From the NCBI GenBank assembly GCA_018651725.1, contig JABIDK010000006.1, positions 48,482-112,481 on the forward strand: a DNA stretch of 64,000 bases, written 5' to 3'. Source of the stretch: Candidatus Falkowbacteria bacterium. GTDB taxonomy: Bacteria > Patescibacteriota > Patescibacteriia > JAACEG01. Made by a program: the position numbers and the translations under genes. Position 1 is the stretch's first letter; the number at the start of each line of letters is the position of its first letter. The notes beneath the pieces were generated by a model. It was not told the DNA's origin and ran no database searches. It was given only the letters and a program-made list of their open reading frames with translations. Shown here piece after piece: positions 2,408-63,813 of this stretch.

Positions 2408-2419
2408 AAACACAAAACA

Positions 2420-2452: not shown

Positions 2453-2459
2453 TTTGTAT

Positions 2460-2744: not shown

Positions 2745-2896
2745 ACATTTGAAATTAATAATTTAAAAACATTATTTTAAGTATACTTGTATTTTTAATT
2801 TTGTCAATGGTATGCATGGTGTCTATTGCGGTATGGACTGTATTTTACAAACCTGAAAATAGATTGTACTATGGATAATAGTTATTAGTATTTTTT

Positions 2897-45665: not shown

Positions 45666-45908
45666 ATGATTAAAAAAATCTTTGAAAAACAAAAAAAGTT
45701 TTTAATGCCCATGGTTAAGAAAGCGCAAAAAGTAATTGTTGCAATACTTTTGTTTTTATTGTATATTTTTGGATTTGGTTTAACAGCTATAATTTTATTG
45801 ATTTTTAATAGAAAGCTTTTGGGTTTTAAAAAAAGAGACAAAAATACATTTTGGGAAGATGCTAAAGGATATGAGACTGATACAGCTAAAAATTTAAGAC
45901 AATTTTAA
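45666..45908 (+). CDS. Small membrane protein of the kind found beside carbamoyltransferases (SxtJ-like)
   Basis: 80 aa with one TM and a charged tail. The call rests on position upstream of a DUF5989-like ORF and a carbamoyltransferase. Confidence 0.4.
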   Translation: MIKKIFEKQKKFLMPMVKKAQKVIVAILLFLLYIFGFGLTAIILLIFNRKLLGFKKRDKNTFWEDAKGYETDTAKNLRQF

Positions 45909-45909
45909 T

Positions 45910-46071
45910 ATGCAAAAAGTAATTTATATCTTAAAAGAATTATTTGGTTTAATTAAAGCTCACAAGCTTTATATTTTAACGCCGATTTTAGTAATGCTAG
46001 CTCTTATATCTTTTTTGGTTTATTATATAGGCCCTACTGTTATAATTTCTTTTATTTATGCGGGAGTTTAA
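45910..46071 (+). CDS. DUF5989-like (SxtK-like) small membrane protein
   Basis: 53 aa, 'MQKVIYILKELFGLIKAHKLYILTPILVMLALISFLVYYIG'. This is the typical sequence pattern of the short partner of SxtJ-like proteins. It is missing from the ORF track because it is under 60 aa. Confidence 0.4.
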   Translation: MQKVIYILKELFGLIKAHKLYILTPILVMLALISFLVYYIGPTVIISFIYAGV

Positions 46072-46077
46072 TTGCAT

Positions 46078-46302
46078 ATGAATGTTAATGAAAAAATAGA
46101 TTTAACTGGAATTCCTTGTCCTCACAATTTTGCTAGGGCTTTATTTAGGCTTGAAACAATGGATGAAGGTGAGATCTTGGAGATTATTATTGATGATGGT
46201 CGACCAATTAAAAAAATGCCAACGAGATTAACTGAGGAGGGATATAAAATTATCAAAAAAGAAAAAAAAGGAGAGAATTGGATTTTAGAAATCAAAAAAT
46301 AA
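46078..46302 (+). CDS. TusA-like (SirA/YedF) sulfur-carrier-fold protein
   Basis: 'IDLTGIPCPHNFARAL...GEILEIIIDDG' matches the TusA 'LD..GL.CP.P' motif, with CPHN in place of CPxP. Confidence 0.6.
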   Translation: MNVNEKIDLTGIPCPHNFARALFRLETMDEGEILEIIIDDGRPIKKMPTRLTEEGYKIIKKEKKGENWILEIKK

Positions 46303-46309: not shown

Positions 46310-47326
46310 ATGGAAGAGAAAAAAATATGTAAAAAATGTATATTACCAGAAACCAGGCCAGACATTTGGCTGAACGAAGAAGGTGTCTGTAGTGTTTGTG
46401 TTGTTTATGAAAATGAAAAAAAGTTTTCGAAAGGAGAAAAAGGAGCCCTTGAAACAGATTTTATCAAAATATTGGAAAAAAATAAAGGAAAGGGTGAGTA
46501 TGACTGCTTGGTGATGTGTAGTGGAGGAAAAGATAGTACTTCTGCTTTATATTATATAAAAGAAAGATATAAATTAAATCCATTGGCCTTTACTTTTGAT
46601 CATGGCTTTGAAACAAGTGATGCCCTGGAAAACGTTAATAAGGCAGTGGATAAATTAGGGGTAGATTTTCTTTTTTTCAAATCATCTTTTATGAAAGATA
46701 TGTTTGCAAAAATCTTAAAAACGCGGTCAAAAGCGGTTATTTGCCATCTATGTTCTATGTGGTATATGGATTTAACTTATAAAATAGCAGCAAAATATAA
46801 TGTTCCTATAATAATTGCCGGCTGGACAAAGGGGCAATCAGTAAAACAACCGGTAATGTCGAAGTGTGCTTGTAAGTCAGATTCACCTGAATATGCATCC
46901 ATGGCCAAAGCCACAAAAGATTTTATAGAGGAACATGTTAAGAATGATCCTAAATATAAAGGTTTCCCACAAAACATGGAGGAAGTTTTAAAAAAGGCTA
47001 AAAAAAGACACAAGTCAATGGTTGTATCCCCTCATTGGTTTTTACCGATAGACGCTGATGCTTATGTTGAAACAATTAAAAAAGAATTAGACTGGAAGTA
47101 TCCAGAGTTAAGCTATCCAGCAAAAACAACCAATTGTGAATTAAATTTTATCTCTGTTTATAATTCAAAAAAACATTATGGCTACACTCACTATGATCTG
47201 GAGATGAGCAGACTTATAAGAGAAGGCATTATCTCAAGAGAAGAAGCTCTAAGAGATTTAGAAATAAATTTTGATAAAGATTTATTAAACGTAATTGCAA
47301 AAAAACTAGGTTATAAATTTGAATAA
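46310..47326 (+). CDS. PP-loop ATP pyrophosphatase of the N-acetyl-sugar amidotransferase (WbuX/WbpG-like) type
   Basis: N-terminal zinc ribbon 'CKKCILPETRPDIWLNEEGVCSVC'. PP-loop is 'CSGGKDST'. A C-terminal 'ISREEAL' region is present. Confidence 0.55.
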   Translation: MEEKKICKKCILPETRPDIWLNEEGVCSVCVVYENEKKFSKGEKGALETDFIKILEKNKGKGEYDCLVMCSGGKDSTSALYYIKERYKLNPLAFTFDHGFETSDALENVNKAVDKLGVDFLFFKSSFMKDMFAKILKTRSKAVICHLCSMWYMDLTYKIAAKYNVPIIIAGWTKGQSVKQPVMSKCACKSDSPEYASMAKATKDFIEEHVKNDPKYKGFPQNMEEVLKKAKKRHKSMVVSPHWFLPIDADAYVETIKKELDWKYPELSYPAKTTNCELNFISVYNSKKHYGYTHYDLEMSRLIREGIISREEALRDLEINFDKDLLNVIAKKLGYKFE

Positions 47327-47329: not shown

Positions 47330-49051
47330 ATGACTATATTAGGAATATCTTGTTATTACCATGATTCATCAGCCTGTCTTATAAAGGACGGCAAGTTAGT
47401 TGCGGCTGTTCAAGAAGAAAGATTTGATCGAAATAAATATTCATCCGCTTTTCCTATAAACTCTATTAATTATTGCCTCCAATCCGCTAATTTAACCTCT
47501 TATGATATTGACTATGTAGCTTTTTATGAAAAGCCCTTTTTAAAATTTGAAAGAATAATTTTGAATCACTTAAGATCTTATCCCTTTTCTTTAAAAAATT
47601 TTTTAGATACAACACCTCATTGGCTTAAAGATAGGCTAATCTTGCCACTAACACTTAAAGAAGAGCTGGGTTTCAAAGGAGATGTTTTTTTTATTAAACA
47701 TCATCTGGCTCATGCGGCAAGTACTTTTTTAACATCTCCTTTTGATAAAGCGGCAATTTTAACGGTGGATGGAGTCGGAGAATGGGCTACTACAACTTAT
47801 GGAACAGGAAAAGATAATAAAATAAATGTGTTAAAAGAAATTAAATACCCAAACTCTCTAGGACTTCTTTATTCAATTGTAACAACTTATCTTGGCTTTA
47901 GGGTTTTTTCTGGGGAGGGCAAGGTTATGGCCCTTGCTGAAACTGGTGACCCAAAATATTTAGATAAATTTAAAAAAATAATCAGCATCAAAGATGACGG
48001 TAGCTTTAGATTAAATAAAAAATATTTTTATTTTAATAAAGGTGGGCGGATGTATAACAATAATTTTATTAAACTTTTCGGTGATCCAAGAAGGGAAAAA
48101 GAGGATATTAAAGATAGGCATCGGGACGTAGCGGCTAGCTTACAAAAAACAGTAGAGGATATTATTTTAAAGATGGTTAAGCATATTCACAAAGAGACTG
48201 GTCTTGATAATTTGTGTCTCGCAGGAGGTGTTTTTTTAAATGTTACAACTAATACTAGAATAGTAAAAGAGTCTTTTTTCAAAAATGTTTTTATCCAACC
48301 AGCTGCCGGAGATAACGGTAGTGCCTTGGGAGCGGCTTTTTATGTGTATAATTCTTTAAAAAATCAACCAAGAAAGCATGTTATGAAAAATGCTTGTTTG
48401 GGGCCAGAATATAGTGATAAAAAAATTAAGATCTTTTTATCAAACAAGGGTGTTAAATTTAAACGACTAGAGAACGATGAACTGACAAAATATGTTGCCA
48501 AAAAAATTTCTCAAGATAAAATAGTTGGTTGGTTTCAAGGACGAATGGAGTTTGGTCCGCGAGCTTTGGGAAATAGGAGTATTTTAGCAAATCCCGGTAA
48601 TCCGAAAATAAAAGATATTTTAAACAAGAAAGTAAAGCACCGTGAATCATTTCGACCATTTGCAATCAGTATTTTACGCGAAGATTTAAATGATTTTTTT
48701 GACCTTGAAATTGATAGTCCTTTTATGCTTTTGGTCGGTAAGGTTAAAAAAGACGAGGTGAATTCCGGAGGAAGAGAGGGTGGTCTGGGCCAAAAAAAAG
48801 AATTAATTCCTGGAGCGCTTCACACTAATAATACCTCTCGTATCCAAACTGTTAAAAAAGAAGACAATGAGCTTTACTATAATTTAATTAAAGAATTTAA
48901 AAATATCACCGACTTACCTCTTGTAATTAACACCTCTTTTAACGATCAAGAGCCAATAGTCTGCACGCCCGAAGAAGCTTATAATTGCTTCGCAAGAACT
49001 AAAATCGATGTTTTAGTATTAGGAAATTATATCGTTGAAAAATATGTTTAA
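47330..49051 (+). CDS. Carbamoyltransferase (NodU/CmcH family)
   Basis: 'ILGISCYYHDSSACLIKDGKLVAAVQEERF' is the Kae1/YgjD-like N-domain of NodU-type O-carbamoyltransferases. Length is 573 aa. Confidence 0.8.
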   Translation: MTILGISCYYHDSSACLIKDGKLVAAVQEERFDRNKYSSAFPINSINYCLQSANLTSYDIDYVAFYEKPFLKFERIILNHLRSYPFSLKNFLDTTPHWLKDRLILPLTLKEELGFKGDVFFIKHHLAHAASTFLTSPFDKAAILTVDGVGEWATTTYGTGKDNKINVLKEIKYPNSLGLLYSIVTTYLGFRVFSGEGKVMALAETGDPKYLDKFKKIISIKDDGSFRLNKKYFYFNKGGRMYNNNFIKLFGDPRREKEDIKDRHRDVAASLQKTVEDIILKMVKHIHKETGLDNLCLAGGVFLNVTTNTRIVKESFFKNVFIQPAAGDNGSALGAAFYVYNSLKNQPRKHVMKNACLGPEYSDKKIKIFLSNKGVKFKRLENDELTKYVAKKISQDKIVGWFQGRMEFGPRALGNRSILANPGNPKIKDILNKKVKHRESFRPFAISILREDLNDFFDLEIDSPFMLLVGKVKKDEVNSGGREGGLGQKKELIPGALHTNNTSRIQTVKKEDNELYYNLIKEFKNITDLPLVINTSFNDQEPIVCTPEEAYNCFARTKIDVLVLGNYIVEKYV

Positions 49052-52000
49052 AAAAATAACTTTAATTTTTTTAGGAGTTTTGATATCTCTAACTTTGCTT
49101 GAGATCAGTTTGCGTTTAGCCGGCAAAGGGTTTTTGTATATTCAAGAAAAAAGAAATATAGTTAGTGAAGAAAAAAATGTTTTTACGATTTTGTGTATCG
49201 GAGAATCAACTACTGCGCTTGCCGGGGATAAAACCAATATTTTTTTAACGGATAAGGAATCTTTTCCAAGACAGTTGGAAGAGATTTTAAATGAAAAATA
49301 CGATGATACGGAATTTAAAGTTATCAATAAAGGTATAATGGTCGGTGATTCAATAAAAATCTTAAGGGAACTAGAAGATGACTTAAATGAATATAATCCC
49401 GATATGGTGATTTCTATGATGGGATTAAAAGACACAAATCATACCTCGCTCTTTAATAAACCAATGATTCTGTCCGGAAATAAGAAAATTGATGAAAAGG
49501 AAGACGATTTTTTTTGGGAGAAGTTTAAAATCTATGGCCTTGTAGGTTTTATTAAAGAGCGCTTGGGAAATAACAAAACCTTGGAAGAAAAAATAGATTT
49601 AGAGGGATTAGCCGAAGATGTTTATTTTACACCTGATCTTTACGCTCGGATTTTTCACTTTAAAGAAGGAGAACGCATCGATGAAGGCACAATGAAAAAA
49701 CTTCTTATAGGGAAATTTTATGAGGATCGGGGCATGTATACTGAGGCAGAAAAGATATATAAAGAAGAAGTGAAAAATAAAAAAGCCGGGTATTTGGGGC
49801 TGGTCAGCGTTTACACACAGGAAGAAAAGTTTATAGAAGCTGAGGAAGTATTAAAAAAGGCCATCAGCGAAAATCCAAATTACAGTATTTACATAGCTGA
49901 GCTAGGAAAGCTCTATGAGGAAATAAATAAAGAACAAGAAGCTGAAGAAATGTTTTTGCAGGCCATTGAAATAGACGCAAACGAATATGTTTATATTGAG
50001 GCCGGTAAATTCTATAAAGTAACCGGTAACCATAAAAAAGCCGAGGAGATGTTTTTGCGCGCTATTGAAGTAAATGAAAAAGAATTTTACGCTTTTGAAG
50101 AAGCCGGTAAATTTTACAAAGAAGTTGGTAACCAAGAAAAAGCTGAAGAGCTGTTTCTAAAAGCAATTGAAGTTAATCCGCAAAAACACACGAGTTATCT
50201 TAATCTTGAAGATCTTTATAGTCAACAAAAAGATTATATTAAAGAGGAGAATATTTACAAGCAAGCGATTGTTGCTAACCAGAGAATCGGCGAATACTTT
50301 GAGCTTGTGAAATTTTATCAAAATCATGAAAAAGAAGAAGGTGCTAAAAAAGTTTTTGTTGACGCTCTTAAAAATGTTCCCTCTTATGGACATAACTACA
50401 AAATGCTTTTAGAAATTTTAGAGGAAAAAAATATACCTTTAGTAGCTATGGGCTACCCTTCTTATAATTTGGGTTTATTAAAAAATATTTTCCCTGAAAA
50501 TGATAAAATAACATTTATTGATAATAAAAATGTTTTTGAAAGTAGAGATCAAGAAGATTTTTATTTTGAAAATAAATTTCCTTATCAATTTAATCATTAC
50601 ACAAAATTGGGAGCCAAATTAATAGCAGACAATATTGCCAGCGCTATCGAAGATAGTGTTAAAAAAATAAATCAGCCAGAGGCTGGTCAGTCTCTGGCTG
50701 AAAAACAAGAATTAGGGGTTGATTTATCTTGTCCGGATTGCAATCTGATTGTTGTGTCTCTTTCTAATGTTCGGAAGGATCATTTGGGGCTTTATGGATA
50801 TTCTCGCGATACCTCCCCTAATATCGATGAATTTTTTAAAGATTCAATTGTGTTTGACTCTACTTTTGCACCGGCTTCTTGGACTTTCACAAACGCGGTT
50901 TCGTTTTTGACATCGCTTTCTCCGTATAAACATGGTATAATGGAAAGGAAGAAAAATGTTAATTTATCAAAGATAAATAACATAAAATTTTTAGCTGAAA
51001 TTTTAAAAGATAATAACTATAAAACAGCCGCTTTTGTCAGTGATGAAGACTATAACCGCAAATATGGGCTGAATAGGGGCTTTGATACTTTCTTTGATAA
51101 AAATAGTTATTTTGATTATGGCATAAAGTTTAATCCCGGGGAGTATAATATCGGGACCAAGCAACTTGTTGGTCCGGCCGTAGATTGGATGAAAGAAAAT
51201 TATAAAGATAAATTTTTTTTGCTTCTTCAGGGTTTTGATGCTCATTGTCCGTATACGCCAAATAGCCCTTACGATAAAAAATTTAGTTCTAAGGAGAGTA
51301 AACAAGATTTTTCTGAGTGCTATATTACTCCTAAAGTTGTTGAATCAATAGAAACAGATAGTGGAAAAAAGTGGCCATTGCAAAGCTGGTCTTCCTTTAA
51401 AGAAAAAGGAGATGAAAAAATATTGTTTAAGAAAGAAGATATCGAACAAATGATAACGCTTTATGATGGAGAAATAGCCCAAGCCGATAATAATTTAAAA
51501 GATTTGTTTGAAACAATAGAAGATCTGGACTTAACAAAAAATACAATAATTGTTTTCTTGTCAGAACACGGTGAATTATTTGGTGAAAACGGATTTTTTA
51601 TGAGAGTTTCTTTAAGCGCTCAGGGAACTTTAAACGATAAAATAATTAATATTCCTTTTATAATGAAGCATCCTAAGGTAGATAGAGCGATGCAAATTGA
51701 TAGTCTAGTTCAATTGATTGATTTAGCGCCTACTTTTTTACAGATCTTAGGACTGGAAGGATACTATGGCGGGCAGATGCAGGGTAAAAGTATTGTACCG
51801 GTTATTACTAAAAACAAAGAAGTGAATGAATTTGTTTATGGGGGCGTAAAGCGAAAACATTCTATTTATGATCCAGACGAGGTTTTTCTAACCGAGTTTA
51901 TTAGAGACAAGCAATGGAAGCTGTTAAAAGAAATAATAATAAACAGTAAATCACAAGAGCAAATTTCGGAATTTTACGGACTTTATAATACAATAAAAGA

Positions 52001-52094
52001 TTCTGAGGAGAAAGAAAATTTATATGATCAAAATAACAATATAGCAAAACAATTATTAAATAATTTAAACTTATGGGTAACAGAACAAAAGTAA
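49035..52094 (+). CDS. Multidomain membrane-anchored protein: SGNH-like hydrolase blocks split by TPR repeats, plus C-terminal sulfatase-fold (AlkP-superfamily) domain
   Basis: N-terminal TM. 'LCIGESTTA' is like SGNH block I. 'FNHYTKLGAKLIA' is like block V. Between them are ~6 TPR-like repeats ('AEEMFLQAIEID...AEELFLKAIEVNP'). The C-terminus has 'CPDCNLIVVSLSNVRKDHLGLYGY' and 'SEHGELFGENG'. Confidence 0.55.
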   Translation: MKNMFKKITLIFLGVLISLTLLEISLRLAGKGFLYIQEKRNIVSEEKNVFTILCIGESTTALAGDKTNIFLTDKESFPRQLEEILNEKYDDTEFKVINKGIMVGDSIKILRELEDDLNEYNPDMVISMMGLKDTNHTSLFNKPMILSGNKKIDEKEDDFFWEKFKIYGLVGFIKERLGNNKTLEEKIDLEGLAEDVYFTPDLYARIFHFKEGERIDEGTMKKLLIGKFYEDRGMYTEAEKIYKEEVKNKKAGYLGLVSVYTQEEKFIEAEEVLKKAISENPNYSIYIAELGKLYEEINKEQEAEEMFLQAIEIDANEYVYIEAGKFYKVTGNHKKAEEMFLRAIEVNEKEFYAFEEAGKFYKEVGNQEKAEELFLKAIEVNPQKHTSYLNLEDLYSQQKDYIKEENIYKQAIVANQRIGEYFELVKFYQNHEKEEGAKKVFVDALKNVPSYGHNYKMLLEILEEKNIPLVAMGYPSYNLGLLKNIFPENDKITFIDNKNVFESRDQEDFYFENKFPYQFNHYTKLGAKLIADNIASAIEDSVKKINQPEAGQSLAEKQELGVDLSCPDCNLIVVSLSNVRKDHLGLYGYSRDTSPNIDEFFKDSIVFDSTFAPASWTFTNAVSFLTSLSPYKHGIMERKKNVNLSKINNIKFLAEILKDNNYKTAAFVSDEDYNRKYGLNRGFDTFFDKNSYFDYGIKFNPGEYNIGTKQLVGPAVDWMKENYKDKFFLLLQGFDAHCPYTPNSPYDKKFSSKESKQDFSECYITPKVVESIETDSGKKWPLQSWSSFKEKGDEKILFKKEDIEQMITLYDGEIAQADNNLKDLFETIEDLDLTKNTIIVFLSEHGELFGENGFFMRVSLSAQGTLNDKIINIPFIMKHPKVDRAMQIDSLVQLIDLAPTFLQILGLEGYYGGQMQGKSIVPVITKNKEVNEFVYGGVKRKHSIYDPDEVFLTEFIRDKQWKLLKEIIINSKSQEQISEFYGLYNTIKDSEEKENLYDQNNNIAKQLLNNLNLWVTEQK

Positions 52095-53848
52095 ATAATA
52101 AAAAAATAATTTTATTGTCTTTATTGGGGTTGATTTTAGCGCTCTTTGTTTTTCTTTTTCTAAAATATATTTTTCTAGAAAACAAAGGACAAAAATCACC
52201 TCCTACTACTCTATCGACCGCTAAAGAAGCTCCTTTATCACGATTTGAAAAATTTGATTTTGAAAATTTAAGATTAAATAAAGACGATAATTTATATTCT
52301 ATTAAACAAGGAGAAGTGTTTAAAAATAGCTCGCTAAAAGTTGAAAATAAAGAAAAAATTGGAAAATTGAAACGTTTGGCTATGTTTTATCTATGGAGTA
52401 AGGAAGATCCATTATTGACAAGTCCTGATTTTGATTTTGTAAATTTTGCCAAAAGTTTGGAAATTTTAGACAAAGACTCAAAAGAACTTTTTAAATTGTC
52501 TGGATTAGAAGATAATATTTTTCCAATAAGCTTTTTATCAAAAATGCAAGTTGTTGCCAGTAATCACTCTGCTTTTATGAACAATATCAGCGAGCAAAAC
52601 GCTGTCAGTCTTTTAGACTCACTTGACAAAGCTGTAACTGAGTACGAAAAAGAAGCTAAATATTTACATATAAAAGTAAGTAGTGTTAAAAAAGATGAAA
52701 ACTTTATATTTCTCCCCTCTCTTATGACTAACAGAGCAATCGTTATGAATGATCTAGGAAAGATAGTGGAAAATGCAAAAAAACTTTCCAGTGAAGTAGG
52801 AATAAGAAAAGAGTGTTTTTACGAAGATTCTTTTTTCTGTGTTTTACCGAAGCTTAGTCTGGAAAAACCCATTAGACCAGGTGAAGATGATTTTAGTTGG
52901 GCACCTTATTTAATGAATAAAGATAAATTATTTTATCCGATTGAATATAAAAATAGCTTATTTGAAGGTCCTTATCAAATAGAAACCAAATGTATAAAAC
53001 CGGCTAACTCTTCATTAGGCGATAAACAGTTAATTTATACAGCTGTTTCTGATAATAATTTATTAAACACCCCTATTCAATTTTTTAAGTCTGCTACTAA
53101 CAACTATTATTCTAATAATTTTGATCCAAAAATATTAGATAAGTTAAAGAATAAGAATGCAAAGTACAAACCAATGCCGGAGACCAACCCTTATGCCTGT
53201 GTTGATTTTGAGTATCTGCCAAAGGTGGCTGTTATTAATAGTTTTTTCTTAAATTATAAAAATAATCTTATTTTTGAGGGTATTCAAGGACAACATTATT
53301 TTAATGACTTAAACAAGGAATTACAAAAAACAATTAAAGAAGGAATGGAGGCAGAGAATAACTTTTTCAATAAAGACTACCCTACTTTAAAAGACTTAGA
53401 ATATTTATCCGAGGTTTATTTTTATGTTTACTCAAAAATGTTAAGCCAAAATTTTTTTGATGAAAATTTACAAGAGGAGTTATTAAATAGATATTTAATT
53501 GTGAACAGGGGGTTAAGCGATTTTGATTTGTTGTTTAATAATTTTACCTATTATTATATTAATCTTTTAAAAAGATATTCTTTAGCTGGGACAAAATTTT
53601 CTGAAGACCAAATTTATTTAACCAGAACCGCTTACTCATTGACCTTTTTCCCTTTTTCTTCTTCTGTTTGGCGTATTTCTGATAAGTTAAAATATTATAA
53701 TATTTTAGAAGAAAAAACTGACTCTCCCTTTACTGATTATAAAAGCGCGATTTTAAAATATAGTGAAAAAGAAGTTCTAAGCTGGAACGAAAATAACAAC
53801 ATGCCACAAATATACGAGCAATTGATTCAAGAAAGGTTGAAAAATTAG
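52073..53848 (+). CDS. Membrane-anchored hypothetical protein
   Basis: N-terminal TM. 591 aa. No motif recognised. Confidence 0.3.
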   Translation: MGNRTKVNNKKIILLSLLGLILALFVFLFLKYIFLENKGQKSPPTTLSTAKEAPLSRFEKFDFENLRLNKDDNLYSIKQGEVFKNSSLKVENKEKIGKLKRLAMFYLWSKEDPLLTSPDFDFVNFAKSLEILDKDSKELFKLSGLEDNIFPISFLSKMQVVASNHSAFMNNISEQNAVSLLDSLDKAVTEYEKEAKYLHIKVSSVKKDENFIFLPSLMTNRAIVMNDLGKIVENAKKLSSEVGIRKECFYEDSFFCVLPKLSLEKPIRPGEDDFSWAPYLMNKDKLFYPIEYKNSLFEGPYQIETKCIKPANSSLGDKQLIYTAVSDNNLLNTPIQFFKSATNNYYSNNFDPKILDKLKNKNAKYKPMPETNPYACVDFEYLPKVAVINSFFLNYKNNLIFEGIQGQHYFNDLNKELQKTIKEGMEAENNFFNKDYPTLKDLEYLSEVYFYVYSKMLSQNFFDENLQEELLNRYLIVNRGLSDFDLLFNNFTYYYINLLKRYSLAGTKFSEDQIYLTRTAYSLTFFPFSSSVWRISDKLKYYNILEEKTDSPFTDYKSAILKYSEKEVLSWNENNNMPQIYEQLIQERLKN

Positions 53849-53860
53849 TTTTAATTCAGT

Positions 53861-56515: not shown

Positions 56516-56527
56516 CAACAGCCCCAT

Positions 56528-57907
56528 ATGAAAACTATATTAAATTTTTTAGAGAAAAATTATTTGCGTATAATTTTAACAGTTTTGATAATGTCTTTAT
56601 TGCTTATTTTTGGAAGTTCTTTAAATAGATCGTTTGATCACGATGAGTTCGAGGCGATTCACACAGCTTGGAAAATTTCAGAAGGTGAAGTAATTTACTC
56701 TGATTTTTTCCAGCACCACCACCCCTTATTTTATTATTTATTAGTACCTTTTATAGAAATATTTGGAGAAAATGTTAATACGATTTTAACGATTAGGTTT
56801 TTTATTTTTTTAGTTTTGCTCGGCATTGTTATCACAACCTATTTGTTGGCAAGAATAATTTTTAAAAATAAAAAATGGTCTTTAATCAGCGCCACTCTAC
56901 TCCCTCTTTTTATTGTTTTCGCAAATAAGGGGATTGAAGTAAGACCGGATATTCCTCAAACTTTTTTCGGACTTCTCTCAGTGCTGTTTCTGTTTTATTA
57001 TTTTGACAATCGAAGAAATAAAAATTTAATATTAAGCTCTGTATTTTTAGGAATTTCTTTTCTTTTTTTACAAAAAACTTTATTTTTAATAGTTCTTTTT
57101 GGTTGTTTTTTTATTTATTTATTATTCAAAAAGAAAATAGCTTATAAGAATTTTTTAATTTATTGGGGGACTTTATTTTTTATTTTAATTTTATTTGCTA
57201 TATTTTTATTTTTTTCCGGAAATATCAAAGAATACTTTTTTTTAAACTGGGCTTTGAACATTAATTTTTTAAACGACTTTTCTTCTTTTAAGTATTTTTT
57301 AGAAATTATCAAACAAAATATTATAATTTTTATTTTTTACATAGTCGGATTATTGTCTTTAGTTAAAAAAAGACAGTTAAGGGGTGTAGGTTTTTTATCT
57401 CTCGGGCTTTTACTGTCTGTATTTTTATTGAAAACCCCGTTTGCTCAAAATTATTTATTAGCTCTACCCTTTATTTGCATAATATCTGTTTTAGGCATAA
57501 AGTTTATTATAAAGGATAAGATAATTATTTTATTAATAATATTAATTTCCTCTTCAATTTCATTTAATATTCTAGCAGTTAATTTACAGAACTCTAATAA
57601 AGATCAATTAAATAAAATAAATCATATTTTATCCATTACCGACAAAGATGATTACATCCACGACGGTGACGCACAGTTTAATTTATTCAGAAAAGATTTA
57701 GATTATTTTTGGTTTGGACTTAAGGAAAATGGTGCTTTGTCAACTTATAATTCCATACGTGGATATGAATATAACACTTACGATTTAATAAAAAAATTCA
57801 AGCCAAAGGTTGTTTCTGATCGCTTTGTGGATGTAAGTAATGAGTATATTTTTAATAATTATATGGAAGATAATAATTTTAATCATATCCTTATAAAAAT
57901 ACCTTAG
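56528..57907 (+). CDS. GT-C-fold membrane glycosyltransferase-like protein (PMT/ArnT-like)
   Basis: ~11 TM. The first extracytoplasmic loop is 'FDHDEFEAIHTAWKISEGEVIYSDFFQHHHP', which resembles the DE...Y...A...G loop of PMT/ArnT enzymes. Confidence 0.45.
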   Translation: MKTILNFLEKNYLRIILTVLIMSLLLIFGSSLNRSFDHDEFEAIHTAWKISEGEVIYSDFFQHHHPLFYYLLVPFIEIFGENVNTILTIRFFIFLVLLGIVITTYLLARIIFKNKKWSLISATLLPLFIVFANKGIEVRPDIPQTFFGLLSVLFLFYYFDNRRNKNLILSSVFLGISFLFLQKTLFLIVLFGCFFIYLLFKKKIAYKNFLIYWGTLFFILILFAIFLFFSGNIKEYFFLNWALNINFLNDFSSFKYFLEIIKQNIIIFIFYIVGLLSLVKKRQLRGVGFLSLGLLLSVFLLKTPFAQNYLLALPFICIISVLGIKFIIKDKIIILLIILISSSISFNILAVNLQNSNKDQLNKINHILSITDKDDYIHDGDAQFNLFRKDLDYFWFGLKENGALSTYNSIRGYEYNTYDLIKKFKPKVVSDRFVDVSNEYIFNNYMEDNNFNHILIKIP

Positions 57908-57908
57908 T

Positions 57909-59432
57909 ATGAGAAAAATATTAAAAATTTTACTATTTTCTTTTTTAATAACCATTTTTATTGTAGCCGGTTTCTTGATTTATTCTGAAAATAAAAAAAT
58001 AGAAGCTGAGAAAATTAATCCGCCAACCGGCGGAGAGAATAGCAATAAAAAAATTAAAGTTATTAGCGAGGAAGAAAAAGCAAACAATATATCACAAAAT
58101 AATAATAAAATTAACAAAGTAGTTTTAATTACTATCGACACTTTGCGGGCCGATCATTTGGGCTATATGGGCTACCCGCGCGACACCTCTCCTTTTTTAG
58201 ATAAGTTAGCAAGAGAAGGGGCTCTTTTAAAGAATGCACATACGGTTATTCCTTCTACAATATCATCTCATTCTTCCATTTTTACATCACTTTATCCGAT
58301 ACAACACAAAACAACCAATCACTATGAAGTTCTTAACGATACCCTCACAACTATGGCGGAATTCTTAAAGGAAAATGGATTTAAAACAGCTGCTTTTGTG
58401 GGAGGAGATTCAATGTATATTAGTAATTTGGATCAAGGTTTTGATATGTATAATTTTTCTGAAACTGGTTTTCGTAGGCGTAGATCGGTCCAAACAACAG
58501 TTGACGAGGCTATAGAATGGTTAAATGAACAACCCAGTGAAGACAAAATTTTTCTTTGGATACATACTTGGGATCTTCATTATCCTTATATAGATATACC
58601 AAATAACATTCAAGAAGAATTTATATTAGAAGGAAAAGATAAAGAAAAACTAGTTAATTTTTGGACAGAAGAACATAACGTGAACTTAAATTTATACAAA
58701 AAAGATAAAGAAGAAAATTTAGTTAAAGTAATGAATGGATACGACGGAGAACTTAAATTTGTAGACAGAGAATTAAATAGATTATTTAATTATTTTGAAG
58801 AAAAGCAAATAAATAATAATTCTCTTTGGATTATAACCGGTGATCATGGTGAAGGTTTGGGTAGTCATGATTTTTATGAACACGCCGAAATGGTGTACGA
58901 AGAAGAGCTTTTAACCCCTGTTATTTTTTATTCTCCTGTTCAAGAAATTGTTGAACCCAAAATAATAAACGATGTTGTAGAAAATATTGATATTTTACCT
59001 ACTATCGCAGATATTATTGGGTTTTCGTTAGAAGAACAAAAAGGAACAATTTTTGGAGTATCGCTTTTGCCGTTATTAACTGGCGTCGATAAATATATAG
59101 ATGGCTATAATTTCGCCTGGACCGGCAATATTTCAGAAACACCTATTGGAAGCGCTATAGAAGAGATTTACGTAGAAAAGATGCCTTGGACAGGAAAAAA
59201 ATGGTCGGTTCAAAATAAAAAATTTAAATATATTTACAATATGGATATAGAAGTGGAAGATGAATTTTATGATTTAGAAAAAGATTCTTTAGAAAAAAAT
59301 AATCTAATAAATCAAAATTCAAAAGAAAAAGATAAATTAAAAAATATTTTATTTAAAAAAATTGAAAAATTAAAATTAGAAAATCAAGACATAAAACGTC
59401 AACCTATTGAAAGATTTCATCTTGATTTTTAA
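57909..59432 (+). CDS. Membrane-anchored sulfatase-fold (AlkP-superfamily) protein, Thr-type
   Basis: 'VVLITIDTLRADHLGYMGYPRDTSPFLD', 'IPSTISSHSSIFTSLYPIQHK' and 'ITGDHGEGLGSHDFYEHAE' are present. Confidence 0.6.
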   Translation: MRKILKILLFSFLITIFIVAGFLIYSENKKIEAEKINPPTGGENSNKKIKVISEEEKANNISQNNNKINKVVLITIDTLRADHLGYMGYPRDTSPFLDKLAREGALLKNAHTVIPSTISSHSSIFTSLYPIQHKTTNHYEVLNDTLTTMAEFLKENGFKTAAFVGGDSMYISNLDQGFDMYNFSETGFRRRRSVQTTVDEAIEWLNEQPSEDKIFLWIHTWDLHYPYIDIPNNIQEEFILEGKDKEKLVNFWTEEHNVNLNLYKKDKEENLVKVMNGYDGELKFVDRELNRLFNYFEEKQINNNSLWIITGDHGEGLGSHDFYEHAEMVYEEELLTPVIFYSPVQEIVEPKIINDVVENIDILPTIADIIGFSLEEQKGTIFGVSLLPLLTGVDKYIDGYNFAWTGNISETPIGSAIEEIYVEKMPWTGKKWSVQNKKFKYIYNMDIEVEDEFYDLEKDSLEKNNLINQNSKEKDKLKNILFKKIEKLKLENQDIKRQPIERFHLDF

Positions 59433-60918
59433 AATAAGTTTATTTATGCAAAGAAATAACAAGTTTTTTATTTTTTTTGTATTTTGTGTTTTGTTAACTA
59501 TTGCTTTTTTAAAGCACATCCCTAATATCCCGGCTGACAAAGTAGATAATAGTGATATTCAAAAAACTAAAAAAATAAATACAAGAGAAAAAATAAAAAT
59601 TGACAGAATTATATTAGTGTCTATAGACACCTTAAGAAAAGACCATTTAAGTTTTACTGGTTACCCTCTTGAAACATCCCCGTTTATAGATGGCTTATCA
59701 GAAAATGGACTTAACTTTAGCAATGCTTTTTCTCATAATTCTGTGACACCTCCGGCCTCTGCCTCTGTGTTTACTTCATTATACCCTTTACAGCACGGGC
59801 TTTTTGATTTTGATACCAAAAAACCTGATAATTCATATTTAATGCTGGCTGAATTCTTAAAGGAAAAAGGATTTAAAACTGCTGCTTTTACCAGTCTGGA
59901 TCATGCTTCTTTGGGTAATAATTTTCAAGGCTTTGACACCTACTCTATTCCGAAAAAAATAAGAGCGGCTGATAAAACTTTTGGACTTGCTTTAAATTGG
60001 CTGGATGAAATTAAGAAAAATGATAAATTTTTTGTATGGACTCATATTGATGATCCGCATGGATTTTTTAAATCAGAAAAAAAATATTATGAAAAAATTT
60101 CAAAGATGATTGATAATAAACCAGGGGAAGATGAATTTTTAAATTATTTATTTAACGAACAAAAAATTGATTTGGATTGTACAGATGGCTTACCCCTTCC
60201 AGCAAAACGTTATCAACATACTAAGGAAGAAATTTTAGATAAAATTATTGATTATGATGCAAAAATAAATTTTGTTGATAATGAATTTGAAAAATTTTAT
60301 AATGAACTTACGAAAAGAGGACTAAATAAAAATATTCTTTGGATTATAACCTCAGAGCATGGCGAAGGATTATGCAGCCATAATCACGCTTATCACGGAA
60401 CTCATATTTATAATGAATTATTAAAAGTGCCGCTTATTTTTTATTTTTCTGATATGGAAATTAATAAAAACATCGATAAAATAGTTGAACACATCGATGT
60501 ACTACCTACAGTCGCTGAATTAGTTGGATTTGATTTGAGTAAGCAAATTAAATCAATACAAGGAACGTCTCTTTTAACTTTTTTGGATGACAAGCCAAGT
60601 TTCCCGGATAAATATGCTTTCTCACAAAGAAGATATTATTCTGAAAATTCTGATTTTAAGGACAAAGGAAAAATGTTTAGTTTACAAAATGAAAAATATA
60701 AATATATTCTAAATGAACATAAGCAAGATGAATTTTATAATCTTATAGATGATCCACATGAATTAAATAATTTAATTAATAAAAATATTTCTCAAAAAGA
60801 TGAATTTAAAAAAGAAATTTTAAAAAGAATAGCAAAATTTACTGATACTAATAATATTATCAATACTAAAGACAAAGAGCTGGAAAAAAAGCTAGAAAAC
60901 TTAGGTTATTTTAAATAA
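59407..60918 (+). CDS. Membrane-anchored sulfatase-fold (AlkP-superfamily) protein, Thr-type
   Basis: 'IILVSIDTLRKDHLSFTGYPLETSPFID', 'VTPPASASVFTSLYPLQHG' and 'ITSEHGEGLCSHNHAYHG' are present. Confidence 0.6.
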   Translation: MKDFILIFKISLFMQRNNKFFIFFVFCVLLTIAFLKHIPNIPADKVDNSDIQKTKKINTREKIKIDRIILVSIDTLRKDHLSFTGYPLETSPFIDGLSENGLNFSNAFSHNSVTPPASASVFTSLYPLQHGLFDFDTKKPDNSYLMLAEFLKEKGFKTAAFTSLDHASLGNNFQGFDTYSIPKKIRAADKTFGLALNWLDEIKKNDKFFVWTHIDDPHGFFKSEKKYYEKISKMIDNKPGEDEFLNYLFNEQKIDLDCTDGLPLPAKRYQHTKEEILDKIIDYDAKINFVDNEFEKFYNELTKRGLNKNILWIITSEHGEGLCSHNHAYHGTHIYNELLKVPLIFYFSDMEINKNIDKIVEHIDVLPTVAELVGFDLSKQIKSIQGTSLLTFLDDKPSFPDKYAFSQRRYYSENSDFKDKGKMFSLQNEKYKYILNEHKQDEFYNLIDDPHELNNLINKNISQKDEFKKEILKRIAKFTDTNNIINTKDKELEKKLENLGYFK

Positions 60919-60922
60919 AAAA

Positions 60923-62461
60923 ATGACAATTAGATCAAGAAACAAAAAAATTAAATATTTTTTATTCATTTTGGGTGTTACTACAGTTTCTTTTTTTATT
61001 TTTTTATTTTATAAAAATCAAAATAATACCATTTTGGTAAATCAAGGTAATATTAACGCTATAATAGAAAGTATTAGTGAAATATCCCCTGATAATAAAA
61101 CCAAAAATATCTCTAATAAAAATATAAAAAGTGATATACCTAATGTTAATAAAATTATCTTAATTACTATAGACACCCTGCGGGCTGATCATTTGGGTTA
61201 TAACGGTTATCCGATTGATACTTCTCCTTTTCTAGACGAACTGGCATCGAAAAGTTTCAATTTTAAAAATACTTTTAGTCAAACTACGCTTACTGTTCCA
61301 TCTAACGCATCTATTTTTACATCCCTGCATCCTCTTCAGCATAAACTCTTCCAGGATCATATGAGGCTAGATGATTCTTTCGTAACTATGGCGGAATTTT
61401 TTAGAGAAAAAGGATTTAAAACAGCGGCTTTTATTGGAAGCCGACATTTTAGTAAGAGTAATATTTTTCAAGGGTTTGACAAAATTGACATGCCGCCAAA
61501 AGAAGAGCGTTTCATGGCTTTGATGACTGACACGGTCAAGCGATTTATAAGACCTTCTAATGAAACTTTAGATAAAGCTTTGAGTTGGATAAAGCAAGAA
61601 GAAGAAAATATTTTTATATGGATCCATCTTTTTGATCTGCACCACGGTTTTATGAAACAAAAATCAGAGAATTTAACTTTAAAAAAGTTTGATCCTTATT
61701 ATTTAAAAAAAGAATATGAGTTTTTATTAAAGGAAGGAGTTATTGATAATAATTGCATATTCAAGGAAGGGAAAAAAATAAAATATAATAACGTCGAAGA
61801 CATACTAGAAACTATTAAAAATTACGATAATCAATTAAAGTTCGTTGACAATAAAATAAAAGATTTTTATGGTGATTTGGAGAAAATTGGCTTTAATAAT
61901 AATTCTCTCTGGGTTATAACATCAGAACACGGCGAGGGTTTATGCTCTCATGGTAGAAAAAGTCACTTTGATCTTTATAATGAAATAATTAGAACGCCTC
62001 TAATTTTTCATTTCCCTGATGATGATTTAAGCGTTGATATTGAGGTCATTGCCAGCCATGTTGATATTTTTCCTACAATGACTCAGCTATTAGGGGTTGA
62101 CTTGAGTGCACGAATTCCAAATATCCAGGGAAATTCTTTATTCGATTTATTAGACAATAATTATACTTTTTCCTATATGCATAGAGATAGTTATCTTAAT
62201 CTAGAGGGTGAAGCAAGTTTGCAAAATAAAAGATTTAAATATATTTTAAACGAAGAATCAGAAGATGAATTTTATAACTTACAAAATGATCCTTTGGAGA
62301 AAAATAATATCATAAAAGAAAAACCAACTGAAGCTGAAAAATTTAGAGATGAAATTATAGAAAAATATAACTTAGCAGATGAAACAACAAAAATAAAAGA
62401 TATATATATAGACGACGAAGAAACATTAAAACAGTTAGAATGGCTTGGCTACATAAAATAA
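60923..62461 (+). CDS. Membrane-anchored sulfatase-fold (AlkP-superfamily) protein, Thr-type
   Basis: 'IILITIDTLRADHLGYNGYPIDTSPFLD', 'LTVPSNASIFTSLHPLQHK' and 'ITSEHGEGLCSHGRKSH' are present. Confidence 0.6.
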   Translation: MTIRSRNKKIKYFLFILGVTTVSFFIFLFYKNQNNTILVNQGNINAIIESISEISPDNKTKNISNKNIKSDIPNVNKIILITIDTLRADHLGYNGYPIDTSPFLDELASKSFNFKNTFSQTTLTVPSNASIFTSLHPLQHKLFQDHMRLDDSFVTMAEFFREKGFKTAAFIGSRHFSKSNIFQGFDKIDMPPKEERFMALMTDTVKRFIRPSNETLDKALSWIKQEEENIFIWIHLFDLHHGFMKQKSENLTLKKFDPYYLKKEYEFLLKEGVIDNNCIFKEGKKIKYNNVEDILETIKNYDNQLKFVDNKIKDFYGDLEKIGFNNNSLWVITSEHGEGLCSHGRKSHFDLYNEIIRTPLIFHFPDDDLSVDIEVIASHVDIFPTMTQLLGVDLSARIPNIQGNSLFDLLDNNYTFSYMHRDSYLNLEGEASLQNKRFKYILNEESEDEFYNLQNDPLEKNNIIKEKPTEAEKFRDEIIEKYNLADETTKIKDIYIDDEETLKQLEWLGYIK

Positions 62462-63813
62462 AAGATCACAAAATTAGTATTTTAATATTTGTGTTATCAT
62501 TTTTTGTGCATCTTATATTTTTAATCGTTTTTTTACATTTTTTCGGACAAGATAAACTTTTAAAAGCAGACAGCCATAATTATCTGTCTTTAGCAAGCAC
62601 TTTATTATCGCAACATCAGTTTTCCGTGAATACAGGTAATTTAATTATGCCGGAGAGCTTTAGAGTGCCTATTTACCCTCTTTTTTTAGCAATTTGCCTG
62701 AGTATTACCAAAAAAATTTGGTTTATTGCACTTATACAGATTTTAATATCGGCGCTAAGTACTGTTTTCGTTTATAAGATATCTCAGTTTTTTTTAAAAG
62801 GTAAATGGGCTGTTGTGCCTAGTCTAATCTTTATTTCTGAACCACGGGTTTTGTATATTTCTATTTTGCTGATGTCGGAAACTTTATTTTTATTATTTAT
62901 TTTAGCTGGGATTTATTATCTTTTAAAATATTTTAAAAATTATAATTATTTAGATCTATTTTTTTCAATCTGTTTTTTAGCGCTTTCTTGTTTAATTAAA
63001 CCTGTTTCTTATTATTTATTTTTTATTATTTTTTTATTGTCTATTTTTTTTATCTTTAAAACAAAAAATAAGAAAAAAATAATAATAACAATATTAATTT
63101 TTGTTTTTAGCTATTCAATGATAATCCTTCCCTGGTTAATACGCAATAAAATATTTTTTAATGAGTTTGAACTATCTAATATAAAAAATTATAATTTATA
63201 TTTTTACAATTCAAGTTTTTTGCATTCAAAATTATATGGGTCTAAAATGGGTTCGGAAAATTTAAATTTTATAGTACAGGATTTGCAGGATAAAGCACGT
63301 GAGCATTATACGGAAAGAAGTTATAGTAAGGATATGTCTTATTTTGTTTATATCAGATCGTTATATGCCAATGATTACTTAAAGAAAGAGTCAACTGAGT
63401 TTATATTAAACAATCCAATCGAATATACGAAAATTCATCTTAAAGGAATGCACGACTTTTTTATTAAAACTCATGATATTAATAGATGGTTTGCAATTAC
63501 TAACAACAAAAGCCTGGCCTACTCTTTGAGTGATGATGAATACTCGAGGTATTTCCCAATAGTTTTACTGGAAAAAATATATTTAATTTTTATATTTTTA
63601 TTATTTTTATCAAGTTTATTTTTTATTCCTAAGAAGAAAAGAATCAATTTTTATATTTTATATGCAACAATATTATATTTTGCTATAGTTTCTTCACCTA
63701 TTTCTTTGGGACGCTTTAAGTACCCAGTAGAAGCTTTTATTTATATTTTAGCTGTTTATTCGCTTCATTCTTTATATAGAATTTATATTAACAAAAAAAA
63801 TGGTTATACATAA
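62440..63813 (+). CDS. Polytopic membrane protein, GT-C-like (possible glycosyltransferase)
   Basis: ~12 TM. The N-terminal loop 'KADSHNYLSLASTLLSQHQFS' resembles GT-C (COG1807-like) enzymes. Confidence 0.4.
   Translation: MAWLHKIKDHKISILIFVLSFFVHLIFLIVFLHFFGQDKLLKADSHNYLSLASTLLSQHQFSVNTGNLIMPESFRVPIYPLFLAICLSITKKIWFIALIQILISALSTVFVYKISQFFLKGKWAVVPSLIFISEPRVLYISILLMSETLFLLFILAGIYYLLKYFKNYNYLDLFFSICFLALSCLIKPVSYYLFFIIFLLSIFFIFKTKNKKKIIITILIFVFSYSMIILPWLIRNKIFFNEFELSNIKNYNLYFYNSSFLHSKLYGSKMGSENLNFIVQDLQDKAREHYTERSYSKDMSYFVYIRSLYANDYLKKESTEFILNNPIEYTKIHLKGMHDFFIKTHDINRWFAITNNKSLAYSLSDDEYSRYFPIVLLEKIYLIFIFLLFLSSLFFIPKKKRINFYILYATILYFAIVSSPISLGRFKYPVEAFIYILAVYSLHSLYRIYINKKNGYT

Follow-up and report, generated by a model that had tools for sequence, protein, structure and literature searches.

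A stretch of 64,000 nucleotides from Candidatus Falkowbacteria bacterium, a member of the candidate phyla radiation (CPR), encodes six sulfatase-fold domains in which a threonine occupies the position of the residue that true sulfatases convert to formylglycine (GenBank assembly GCA_018651725.1, contig JABIDK010000006.1, positions 48,482 to 112,481 of the forward strand; the whole stretch is termed 'the window', and positions are counted within it). The six PF00884 domains (Pfam E-values of 1e-35 to 1e-81) are distributed over five single-pass membrane proteins, termed here p1019, p884, p507, p503 and p512, which are encoded between positions 49035 and 62461 and in all of which PF00884 is accompanied by PF16347 (SGSH_C). 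It is well supported that these domains are outward-facing enzymes of the alkaline phosphatase superfamily, with a threonine nucleophile and a metal site of the Asp/Thr/Asp(Glu)-His type, and that they are not sulfatases. As to their role, we put the chances at about even that they are phosphoryl-transfer ectoenzymes that add or trim phospho-substituents on a glycoconjugate of the cell's own surface.

An earlier note on this DNA had described such an array. The open reading frames and domains stand where it had placed them, the domains are confirmed by Pfam, and the motifs that it quoted are all present. Its count of six domains in five consecutive proteins holds only if p1019 is taken as one of the five (the wording counted that protein twice), and the five genes are not strictly consecutive, being interspersed with the gene for an unrelated protein, p591, and with two genes for membrane glycosyltransferases of the GT-C type.

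The nucleophile position

At the position of the C-x-P-x-R motif of sulfatases, the six domains read TAPSH (p884_C), TISSH (p507), TPPAS (p503), TVPSN (p512), TLPNA (p884_N) and TFTNA (p1019_C), where the suffixes denote the N-terminal and C-terminal domains of a protein. Threonine therefore stands at the formylglycine position in all six, within a motif that can be written T-x-(P/S/T)-x-(H/S/N/A), and the arginine of the S1 sulfatase motif is replaced by His, Ser, Asn or Ala. Three independent alignments agree on this register: a phmmer comparison of p507 with PDB chains, which sets 'PSTISSH' on 'PSSTPAR' of 7oz8 and on 'PICAASR' of 6hr5; a profile of 65 family sequences, which gives the same placement against 7oz8, 7p24, 5g2v and 4upi; and an hhalign comparison of the family profile with MCR-1 (sequence taken from plasmid NZ_MG946761), which sets the threonine on Thr285 with a probability of 98.1% and an E-value of 8e-14. 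The motif alignment that had earlier been made by eye thus does correspond to the true C-x-P-x-R position, the threonine falling on the formylglycine-forming Ser or Cys of 7oz8 and 6hr5 as well as on the nucleophile of MCR-1.

Other features of the sulfatase active site have also changed. The lysine that follows the DHG block in S1 sulfatases is a histidine in four of the domains (class A, below) and an arginine in the other two (class B), and the 'GKxH' position, which supplies the S1 Lys/His pair after the third strand, is not conserved. Nowhere in the 64-kb window is there a C/S-x-P/A-x-R motif or a CxxxCxxC radical-SAM protein, and no formylglycine-generating enzyme (FGE) domain was found among those of its open reading frames that were scanned. 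Because threonine replaces the residue from which formylglycine is formed, none of the six domains can be a formylglycine sulfatase, and a true sulfatase is excluded both by the motif and by the alignment of the threonine on the formylglycine residue. The authors of SulfAtlas reached the same view of other threonine-bearing members of PF00884, and have already warned that this family mixes sulfatases with proteins that are not sulfatases (PMC5066984).

Two classes of active site

The domains fall into two classes. Class A comprises p884_C, p507, p503 and p512, with mutual identities of 35-48%; class B comprises p1019_C and p884_N, a pair with 41% identity that has only about 25% identity to class A. 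The hhalign alignment pairs seven residues of p507 (D77, T117, H219, H224, D312, H313 and H325) with seven catalytic or zinc-site positions of MCR-1 (E246, T285, H390, H395, D465, H466 and H478, respectively), and the residues of every domain at these positions are collected in Table 1. All seven are kept in the four class A domains, as they are in nearly all of the homologs sampled, with Asp for the first Glu throughout and Glu for Asp465 in two copies; class A also has a further histidine five residues ahead of the His of its H-x-P motif, as does MCR-1 ('LHQMGNHGP'). Because class A has every catalytic and zinc position of MCR-1/EptA, phosphoester rather than sulfate-ester chemistry is the sensible reading, and judged by these residues the class A site appears to be of the phosphoryl-transfer type, set in a scaffold of the sulfatase and phosphonate monoester hydrolase (PMH) kind. 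Of the phospho- and sulfo-esters that had earlier been suggested as substrates, the former are thereby favoured.

In class B, the first metal ligand is replaced by Ser or Thr, H390 by Gln, H478 by Arg and the fifth motif residue by Ala or Gly. The same alternatives are found in about 90 class B homologs, mostly from Patescibacteria (Thr in 88 of 90, Glu-His in 86, Gln in 78 and Arg in 84), so that class B is a conserved form and not a decayed copy. It always adjoins or is fused to either a class A domain or a module of SGNH-like blocks and tetratricopeptide repeats (TPRs). The conserved metal site that had been proposed for all six domains consequently stands in part: the (D/E)-H block is invariant, but the first Asp ligand is lost to Ser or Thr in two of the six. 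Much the same is true of the EptA/LtaS-style threonine nucleophile, for which the threonine is present in all six domains and the full set of seven MCR-1 positions in four; the two class B domains depart from that set, and the architecture of the proteins is not that of EptA or LtaS.

Separately, many class A members end in a conserved tail of the form '...E.L..LGY(I/F)K', whose Gly and Tyr are near-invariant among the sequences that reach that far (alignment columns 907-908); p503 and p512 each finish in a tail of this type (at about 60898-60915 and about 62441-62458, respectively).

Overall fold, topology and known relatives

The nearest solved proteins in the PDB are S1 sulfatases, choline sulfatases and PMH, with E-values of 7e-21 for the single p507 sequence and 3e-53 for the profile; the corresponding phmmer value for p507 against MCR-1 is about 1e-6. 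For p507, the AlphaFold2 model made from the family alignment has a mean confidence score (pLDDT) of 88.8, and the best 50 PDB matches of that model by Foldseek are, without exception, structures of S1 sulfatases or PMH (E-values of 8e-27 to 1e-22). None of the NCBIfam equivalogs for arylsulfatase, choline sulfatase, PehA, EptA, MCR, CptA and YejM comes near its cut-off, and by this measure the six domains belong to none of these families. Membership of the EptA/LtaS family is ruled out by these low scores and by the single transmembrane segment. Of the kinship that had been expected, PF00884 and the fold are thus confirmed, and the nearest kin, including the C-terminal subdomain, prove to be S1/PMH and not EptA/LtaS.

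Every sulfatase-fold protein has a single N-terminal hydrophobic segment with Lys or Arg ahead of it. This signal, together with the Cys motifs and a neighbouring protein of the GILT/thioredoxin type, fits an anchor of N-in, C-out orientation or a signal peptide, with the domains predicted to face outward.

The best sequence and fold matches, which are enzymes of the AS/PMH branch of the superfamily (for example BT1918, 7oz8; SpAS1, 4upi; choline sulfatase, 6fny; RlPMH, 2vqr; and EfAS), share with the window proteins a two-part architecture, a C-terminal subdomain of the SGSH_C type and the motif 'F/YDL..DP.E..NL', which here reads 'EFYDL..D..E.NNL'. The Asp/nucleophile/Asp-His metal site (D77, T117, D312 and H313 of p507, and the class A equivalents) is common to PMH and EfAS (metal-site residues from PMC12421950). 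The window proteins differ from this group in their threonine nucleophile, which cannot become formylglycine, in the exchange of the motif Arg and the active-site Lys for His, in the lack of a conserved Lys/His pair behind the 'GY.T' strand, and in the extra conserved His before the H-x-P motif.

With EptA/MCR-1, class A shares the seven-residue Thr/His/metal set and an outward-facing disposition. Unlike those enzymes, the window proteins have one hydrophobic segment where EptA and MCR-1 have a membrane domain of five helices for binding of the lipid donor; their catalytic domain is about 100 residues longer and includes the S1-type C-terminal subdomain, and their scores against the EptA and MCR families of NCBIfam are 15-70 bits against cut-offs of 500-1250. 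LtaS and GacH likewise have a threonine nucleophile within a PF00884 domain, but they carry 5-11 transmembrane helices and a T-x-N-x-E motif (PMC5066984), where the window proteins have T-x-P-x-H or variants of it. Neither LtaS nor GacH is among the PDB sequence matches or Foldseek matches listed. The NPP/PafA group of phosphodiesterases and phosphatases (PF01663) resembles the window proteins in its threonine nucleophile and Asp-His ligands and in being made up of ectoenzymes, soluble or with one anchor, which in that group hydrolyse phosphate esters; PF01663 scores above its gathering threshold in all six domains (30-97 bits), always well under PF00884 (122-273 bits, two to three times higher), and the sulfatase-type C-terminal subdomain sets the window proteins apart from it.

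Three further comparisons concern gene organization. In the streptococcal group A carbohydrate cluster, the GacH gene lies beside a side-chain system composed of a family 2 glycosyltransferase (GT2) and a GT-C enzyme, and this cluster is the closest analogue at the level of the operon. The PMT_2-type GT-C proteins, ArnC/PgfS-like GT2 and small polytopic protein encoded in the operon described below recall the three-component extracytoplasmic glycosylation systems (ArnC/ArnT, GtrB/GtrC, PgfS/PgfM and Ppm1/Pmt), although we know of no such system with an array of single-pass sulfatase-fold proteins. Finally, the sulfatase-fold proteins Agl30 and Agl31, whose closest structures are S1 sulfatases of Bacteroides and Formosa, are responsible for N-glycan sulfation in Halobacterium salinarum, and their genes lie in the glycosylation cluster of the GT-C enzyme AglB (PMC11980604). 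They are likened to the window proteins by that published description of a shared cluster with a GT-C enzyme, and they differ in working on the cytoplasmic or membrane side, on a dolichol-phosphate-linked glycan.

The operon and its other genes

From 40.5 to 64 kb, the window is one block of genes on the + strand (Table 1), in which neighbouring genes between 46072 and 63813 overlap or are spaced by 1-13 nucleotides; the start of p1019, for example, overlaps the stop of the carbamoyltransferase gene. The array is part of a single, tightly packed + strand operon that runs from 46072 or earlier to past position 64000, and whose start probably extends back to 40491. Its continuation was read from metagenomic contigs that carry an identical copy of p507, of which there are 21 (and where the protein bears the NCBI name 'sulfatase [Candidatus Falkowbacteria bacterium]'); past the window, the same operon encodes a PRK07208-type FAD oxidoreductase, a third GT-C protein, a 226-residue ArnC/PgfS-like GT2 and a five-helix protein. 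A promoter and terminator scan of 44-64 kb returned counts equal to those expected from shuffled sequence.

Table 1. Positions of the sulfatase-fold array and neighbouring features in the window, with the residues of each domain at seven MCR-1 positions
Feature	Position	Strand	Description	Residues at MCR-1 E246, T285, H390, H395, D465, H466, H478
NPP-type (PF01663) protein	40491-42557	+	688 residues, single-pass, first gene of the block; E 1.1e-26; 'YPSHTPVNFASLLTG' and 'TSDHGA'	
Two 198-residue paralogs	42568-43164, 43155-43751	+	Single-pass; Cys-containing domain; no Pfam or NCBIfam match	
GILT (thiol reductase) protein	43742-45487	+	581 residues, single-pass; PF03227 E 7.4e-11	
WbuX-like N-acetyl sugar amidotransferase	46310-47326	+	TIGR03573 E 2.5e-48, 165 bits, under cut-off of 203	
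NodU-like carbamoyltransferase	47330-49051	+	NodU E 1e-40; Carbam_trans_N E 2e-86, Carbam_trans_C E 1e-66	
p1019	49035-52094	+	SGNH-like N-terminal part, TPR repeats, class B domain; hydrophobic segment at residues 8-26; PF00884 at residues 570-906, E 3.9e-35	
p1019, SGNH-like blocks I-III	49164-49442	+	'CIGESTT', 'VINKGIMVG', 'MMGLKD'	
p1019, TPR region	49692-50399	+	About residues 220-455; matched by more than one TPR family of Pfam, best E 6.5e-15	
p1019, SGNH block-V-like segment	50586-50612	+	'QFNHYTKLG', after the TPR insert	
p1019_C	50742-52067	+	Class B domain	S577, T617, Q732, H737, E844, H845, R857
p591	52073-53848	+	Single-pass, Cys-containing extracytoplasmic protein; not sulfatase-fold	
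p884	53861-56515	+	Signal-anchored, class B + class A; PF00884 in two stretches, E 4.4e-81	
p884_N	about 53963-55150	+	Class B domain	T44, T84, Q184, H189, E275, H276, R288
p884_C	about 55256-56497	+	Class A domain	D473, T513, H615, H620, D705, H706, H718
GT-C, PMT_2 type	56528-57907	+	459 residues, about 8 hydrophobic segments; PF13231 E 6.5e-13, 49.6 bits, cut-off 26.1	
p507	57909-59432	+	Class A; PF00884 E 3.6e-43	D77, T117, H219, H224, D312, H313, H325
p503	59407-60918	+	Class A; PF00884 E 1.3e-39	D74, T114, H213, H218, E317, H318, H330
p512	60923-62461	+	Class A; PF00884 E 7.6e-40	D84, T124, H235, H240, E335, H336, H348
GT-C, PMT_2/PMT	62440-63813	+	457 residues, about 9 hydrophobic segments; PF13231 E 1.7e-8, 35.3 bits; PF02366 E 1.8e-5	

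Public annotations start p503 at 59446, which gives 490 residues, and a gene of that length is called in locus L001.

Two cytoplasmic sugar-modifying enzymes, the WbuX-like amidotransferase and the carbamoyltransferase, are encoded directly upstream of the array; what had been described there as a carbamoyltransferase cluster is one gene. The two polytopic GT-C-like proteins that had been noted among the array genes are borne out by PF13231 scores above the gathering threshold and by 8-9 hydrophobic segments each. The first has an acidic 'DHDEFE' after its first segment and matches the NCBIfam Agl23 subfamily weakly; the second has 'ADSHNY' in the corresponding place. Pairwise BLAST detects no significant similarity between the two, nor between p591 or the GT-C proteins and an unannotated 486-residue protein of locus L006.

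The description of p1019 as a union of SGNH-like esterase blocks, TPR repeats and a sulfatase-fold domain is secure for the last two and weakly supported for the first. Its TPR region matches TPR proteins in the PDB with E-values down to 2.4e-44. The SGNH region scores weakly (Pfam NonGDSL, E 8.9e-4 and 19 bits against a cut-off of 80; NCBIfam AxeA1, E 5.6e-4), with 'GESTT' and 'NKG' present, block III in the form G-x-K-D and block V in the form N-H, and an AlphaFold2 model of the N-terminal 562 residues, made without an alignment, has a pLDDT of 47 and is confident in the TPR region only.

The p591 gene stands directly upstream of a class B domain, as it does in a syntenic relative. The protein matches nothing in Pfam, NCBIfam or the PDB, whether searched as a single sequence or as a family profile, and a word-indexed homolog search returned p591 itself only; with phmmer, it finds 232 cluster representatives (at 50% identity, and typically 500-600 residues long), 90 of them at E-values of 1e-30 or below. 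The family members share an N-terminal anchor and four near-invariant cysteines (248, 256, 307 and 376), and on such sequence grounds appear to constitute an undescribed, conserved family.

The NPP-type protein encoded by the first gene of the block adds a seventh threonine-type ectoenzyme domain of the alkaline phosphatase superfamily, and is found at the same place in the syntenic relative; similar NPP-type genes, of 660-730 residues, adjoin sulfatase-fold genes in the CPR loci L011 and L096. The GILT protein, also conserved in that relative, is likely to be a disulfide-handling partner for the Cys-containing secreted proteins. The Cys domain of the two 198-residue paralogs ('PYPEF...C.E.Y.P..KEH.LGEY.LLYA...GYG.CEE') recurs in the N-terminal third of the GILT protein, making three tandem copies, and is present in the relative as well.

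Between the GILT and amidotransferase genes lie several small + strand open reading frames. One of 46 residues (45484-45624, 'MNKICKKCVLPESRPNIYLND...') repeats the Cys-rich N-terminus of the WbuX-like amidotransferase ('KICKKCILPETRPDIWLNE') and looks as if it were left over from a gene start that had been duplicated or displaced. Three others (45666-46302) encode membrane proteins of 80 and 53 residues and a TusA-like protein of 76 residues with 'CPHN'; the relative has the 80-residue gene and a TusA gene (81 residues) at the matching place, and a sulfur-carrier theme is continued by rhodanese and APS-kinase (adenylylsulfate kinase) genes in the related loci L006 and L011.

The remaining open reading frames of the window that were scanned are housekeeping genes. 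Two others may be recorded: a 584-residue protein (9865-11619, + strand) that has both a protease-inhibitor domain of the Kazal type and a bacterial TSP3 repeat, which is unusual for a bacterium of reduced genome, and a 450-residue open reading frame (34685-36037, + strand) that follows a PilB-like T2SSE ATPase gene and has no Pfam match at an E-value of 1e-5 or below.

Age and distribution of the family

The paralogs within the array are 25-48% identical. In a neighbour-joining tree, they group with orthologs from other genomes (p507 with P0002 and P0006, p1019_C with P0137 and P0146, and p884_N with P0121), and the only sister pair is that of p503 and p512, at 42% identity. The duplications are therefore old. 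A recent tandem duplication is ruled out by the same identities and groupings, and the 'tandem paralog expansion' of the earlier note, if understood as a recent event particular to this genome, is contradicted by them and by the wide distribution of the family.

Among the 120 closest database relatives of p507, threonine is found at the nucleophile position in all 120, T-x-P-x-H in 104 and C/S-x-P-x-R in none. A scan of GTDB, with one genome per species, gave at least 600 pattern matches, of which at least 591 were confirmed; these loci lie in Acidobacteriota, Aminicenantes, Planctomycetota, Thermoanaerobaculia, Myxococcota, Nitrospinota and other groups. In 37 of the 79 loci that were retained, a span of 10 kb contains from two to four genes of the family, and the 135 matches in the GTDB loci read T-x-P-x-H in 103 cases and C/S-x-P-x-R in none. 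One metagenome-assembled genome of the Terriglobales (locus L052, 7842-16165) has four tandem proteins of 647-733 residues, each with a threonine-type sulfatase-fold domain and a C-terminal TPR region, flanked by phoU and a gene for a TPR protein; this array is larger than that of the window, and comes from an unrelated phylum. Tandem arrays and fusions to TPRs thus characterise the family and are not peculiar to the window genome.

Threonine-type PF00884 enzymes in general are well known. What appears to be undescribed is a clade of S1/PMH-like, two-subdomain proteins, soluble or with a single anchor, that has the EptA-like Thr/His set, together with a sister subfamily centred on the CPR whose conserved site is a different one.

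Gene context in related genomes

The closest syntenic genome (locus L095) shares with the window the divergently placed genes for an ABC importer and an SBF protein, the NPP-type first gene, the two paralogs of about 200 residues, and the GILT, TusA, WbuX-like and carbamoyltransferase genes. In that locus, a p591 homolog is accompanied by separate, overlapping class B (463 residues) and class A (519 residues) genes, and a GDSL/TPR gene (539 residues, with a weak Lipase_GDSL_2 match) precedes a separate class B gene of 501 residues. Comparison of 53861-56515 and 49035-52094 of the window with 1772-4719 and 10392-13163 of L095 indicates that p884 and p1019 are gene fusions, because their parts are separate adjacent genes in the relative; by the 'Rosetta stone' argument, class B is therefore tied functionally both to class A and to the SGNH/TPR module.

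A second CPR genome has three sulfatase-fold genes together with PMT, GT2, LAB_N, FAD oxidoreductase and rhodanese genes and the gene for a PEP-utilising (phosphoenolpyruvate-utilising) enzyme; a third combines PMT_2 and APS kinase genes with an array in which two genes are of sulfatase fold and three of NPP type; and, at a Kaiserbacteria locus, genes of class A, class B, the NPP type and a thioredoxin-like type occur with one for a nucleoside hydrolase. Outside the CPR, where the two nearest neighbours on each side were recorded at 37 loci, the recurring families are TPR (7 open reading frames), NPP-type (5) and PhoU (4). NPP-type paralogs recur beside the family, GDPD and Exo_endo_phos genes also occur next to its members, and phoU adjoins arrays in the Terriglobales. 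As broad evidence, the phoU adjacency was downgraded: its four cases are all from Terriglobia/Acidobacteriaceae and have shared synteny.

What the proteins may do

By analogy with EptA, LtaS and NPP, class A domains would cleave or transfer phosphoesters by way of a phospho-threonine. An ion of the Zn/Mn type, held by Asp, Thr, Asp/Glu and His, would activate the threonine hydroxyl for attack on a phosphate ester, most likely a phosphodiester; the covalent phospho-threonine intermediate so formed would then be resolved either by water, if the enzyme is a hydrolase, or by an acceptor hydroxyl, if it is a transferase, with three further conserved histidines standing in for the sulfate-binding Arg and Lys of true sulfatases. 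Either acceptor may apply, although the absence of a polytopic domain and the occurrence of the family beside NPP, GDPD and phoU genes would speak for hydrolysis. Class B would probably be a specialised partner, either with a different activity or as a subunit that holds the substrate.

The target would be a surface glycoconjugate, the product of the GT-C and GT2 system encoded alongside and of the sugar-modifying enzymes. Modification of the cell's own surface is favoured on the strength of the tight operon with sugar-modifying enzymes, the three GT-C proteins, the GT2 of the polyprenol-phosphate type and the fusion to the SGNH/TPR module, and these place it slightly ahead of the scavenging of nutrients, which is considered below.

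Several observations weigh against surface modification. The conservation of the locus that was looked for in related genomes is partial, in that the array and its upstream genes are kept in the closest relative while the GT-C linkage is variable: there is no GT-C gene in the syntenic block of L095 or in the Kaiserbacteria locus, so the coupling is not fixed, and no GT-C family is among the 25 commonest neighbour families at the 37 loci outside the CPR, where neighbourhoods are diverse. The four phoU loci, which come from one order and have shared synteny, amount to about one observation. A transferase would need another route to its donor, because the polytopic domain of EptA, LtaS and GacH is absent. 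In p503 and p512, the fifth motif position is Ser or Asn and not His, and Glu takes the place of Asp, so that the four class A domains need not have one activity; that the seven class A residues cluster round one site is, moreover, something that we infer from the alignments. Finally, no characterised T-x-P-x-H member was found in the literature, of which coverage was incomplete, so that this is absence of evidence only.

The first alternative, which is possible but rather unlikely, is that the proteins, with the same threonine-nucleophile chemistry, are a set of surface phosphodiesterases and phosphatases that differ in specificity and supply an auxotrophic CPR cell with phosphate, head groups or nucleotides stripped from polymers of a host or of the environment. 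The GT-C genes would then be mere neighbours. Such scavenging would account for the wide occurrence of the family without glycan-synthesis neighbours, its recurrence beside NPP-type, GDPD, Exo_endo_phos, nucleoside hydrolase and phoU genes, the retention of the array without GT-C genes in the closest relative, and the ABC importer and SBF symporter whose genes lie upstream, in divergent orientation, in both of two genomes. Sets of catabolic enzymes, too, typically form tandem arrays of diverged paralogs. Against this, the genes are here translationally packed with those for the carbamoyltransferase, the sugar amidotransferase, the GT-C proteins and the GT2, one domain is part of a fusion with an SGNH/TPR module, a type of module that serves in polysaccharide modification, the linkage to GT-C and GT2 genes is repeated in the second CPR genome, and no phosphate transporter genes were seen among the window open reading frames scanned.

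A more far-reaching proposal, which we regard as doubtful, is that T-x-P-x-H enzymes are a distinct class that unites an S1/PMH scaffold with the Thr/His-rich zinc site of the lipid-A phosphoethanolamine transferases, that bridges the formylglycine and threonine branches of the superfamily and that, in CPR bacteria, with a CPR-specific class B partner and no polytopic membrane domain, moves phospho-head groups (for example, from host phospholipid) to the cell's own glycoconjugate.

It is improbable, though most worth considering for class B, that some or all of the domains are non-catalytic binding modules or scaffolds for a phosphorylated or anionic polymer. Class B is without the first metal ligand, has the H390 to Gln and H478 to Arg replacements and Ala or Gly as its fifth motif residue, and is always paired with or fused to another module, and TPR fusions are common in the family. 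The threonine, the His of H-x-P and the Glu-His pair are, however, near-invariant in the roughly 90 class B homologs, and the substituted positions are conserved too, which argues for an active site under selection; class A, for its part, keeps every catalytic position across phyla.

Least probable of all is that these are glycan sulfotransferases (or atypical sulfatases) paralleling Agl30/Agl31, an idea that has the precedent of sulfatase-fold proteins in a glycosylation cluster (PMC11980604), the overall fold nearest to S1 sulfatases and the APS kinase, rhodanese and TusA genes near the relatives in its favour, but that is weakened by a predicted outward topology, where no activated sulfate donor is known, by the exchange of the S1 Arg and Lys for His in a site that equals that of MCR-1 position for position, and by a sulfo-threonine intermediate for which established sulfatase chemistry offers no known route of turnover (PMC5066984).

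Significance

Thousands of database proteins, from the CPR, Acidobacteriota, Planctomycetota, Aminicenantes and other groups, are labelled as 'sulfatase' or 'arylsulfatase A-like' although they are unable to make formylglycine, and inferences of sulfur cycling or glycan degradation that are drawn from such labels are wrong for this threonine-type family. The combination of a sulfatase/PMH scaffold with an EptA-like Thr/His site also represents a natural experiment in the switching of nucleophile and substrate charge within the alkaline phosphatase superfamily. For the organism itself, the commitment of some 15-24 kb of one operon in a very small genome to seven ectoenzyme domains points to a surface or scavenging process that is important to the epibiotic lifestyle of the CPR, a lifestyle that is otherwise poorly understood.

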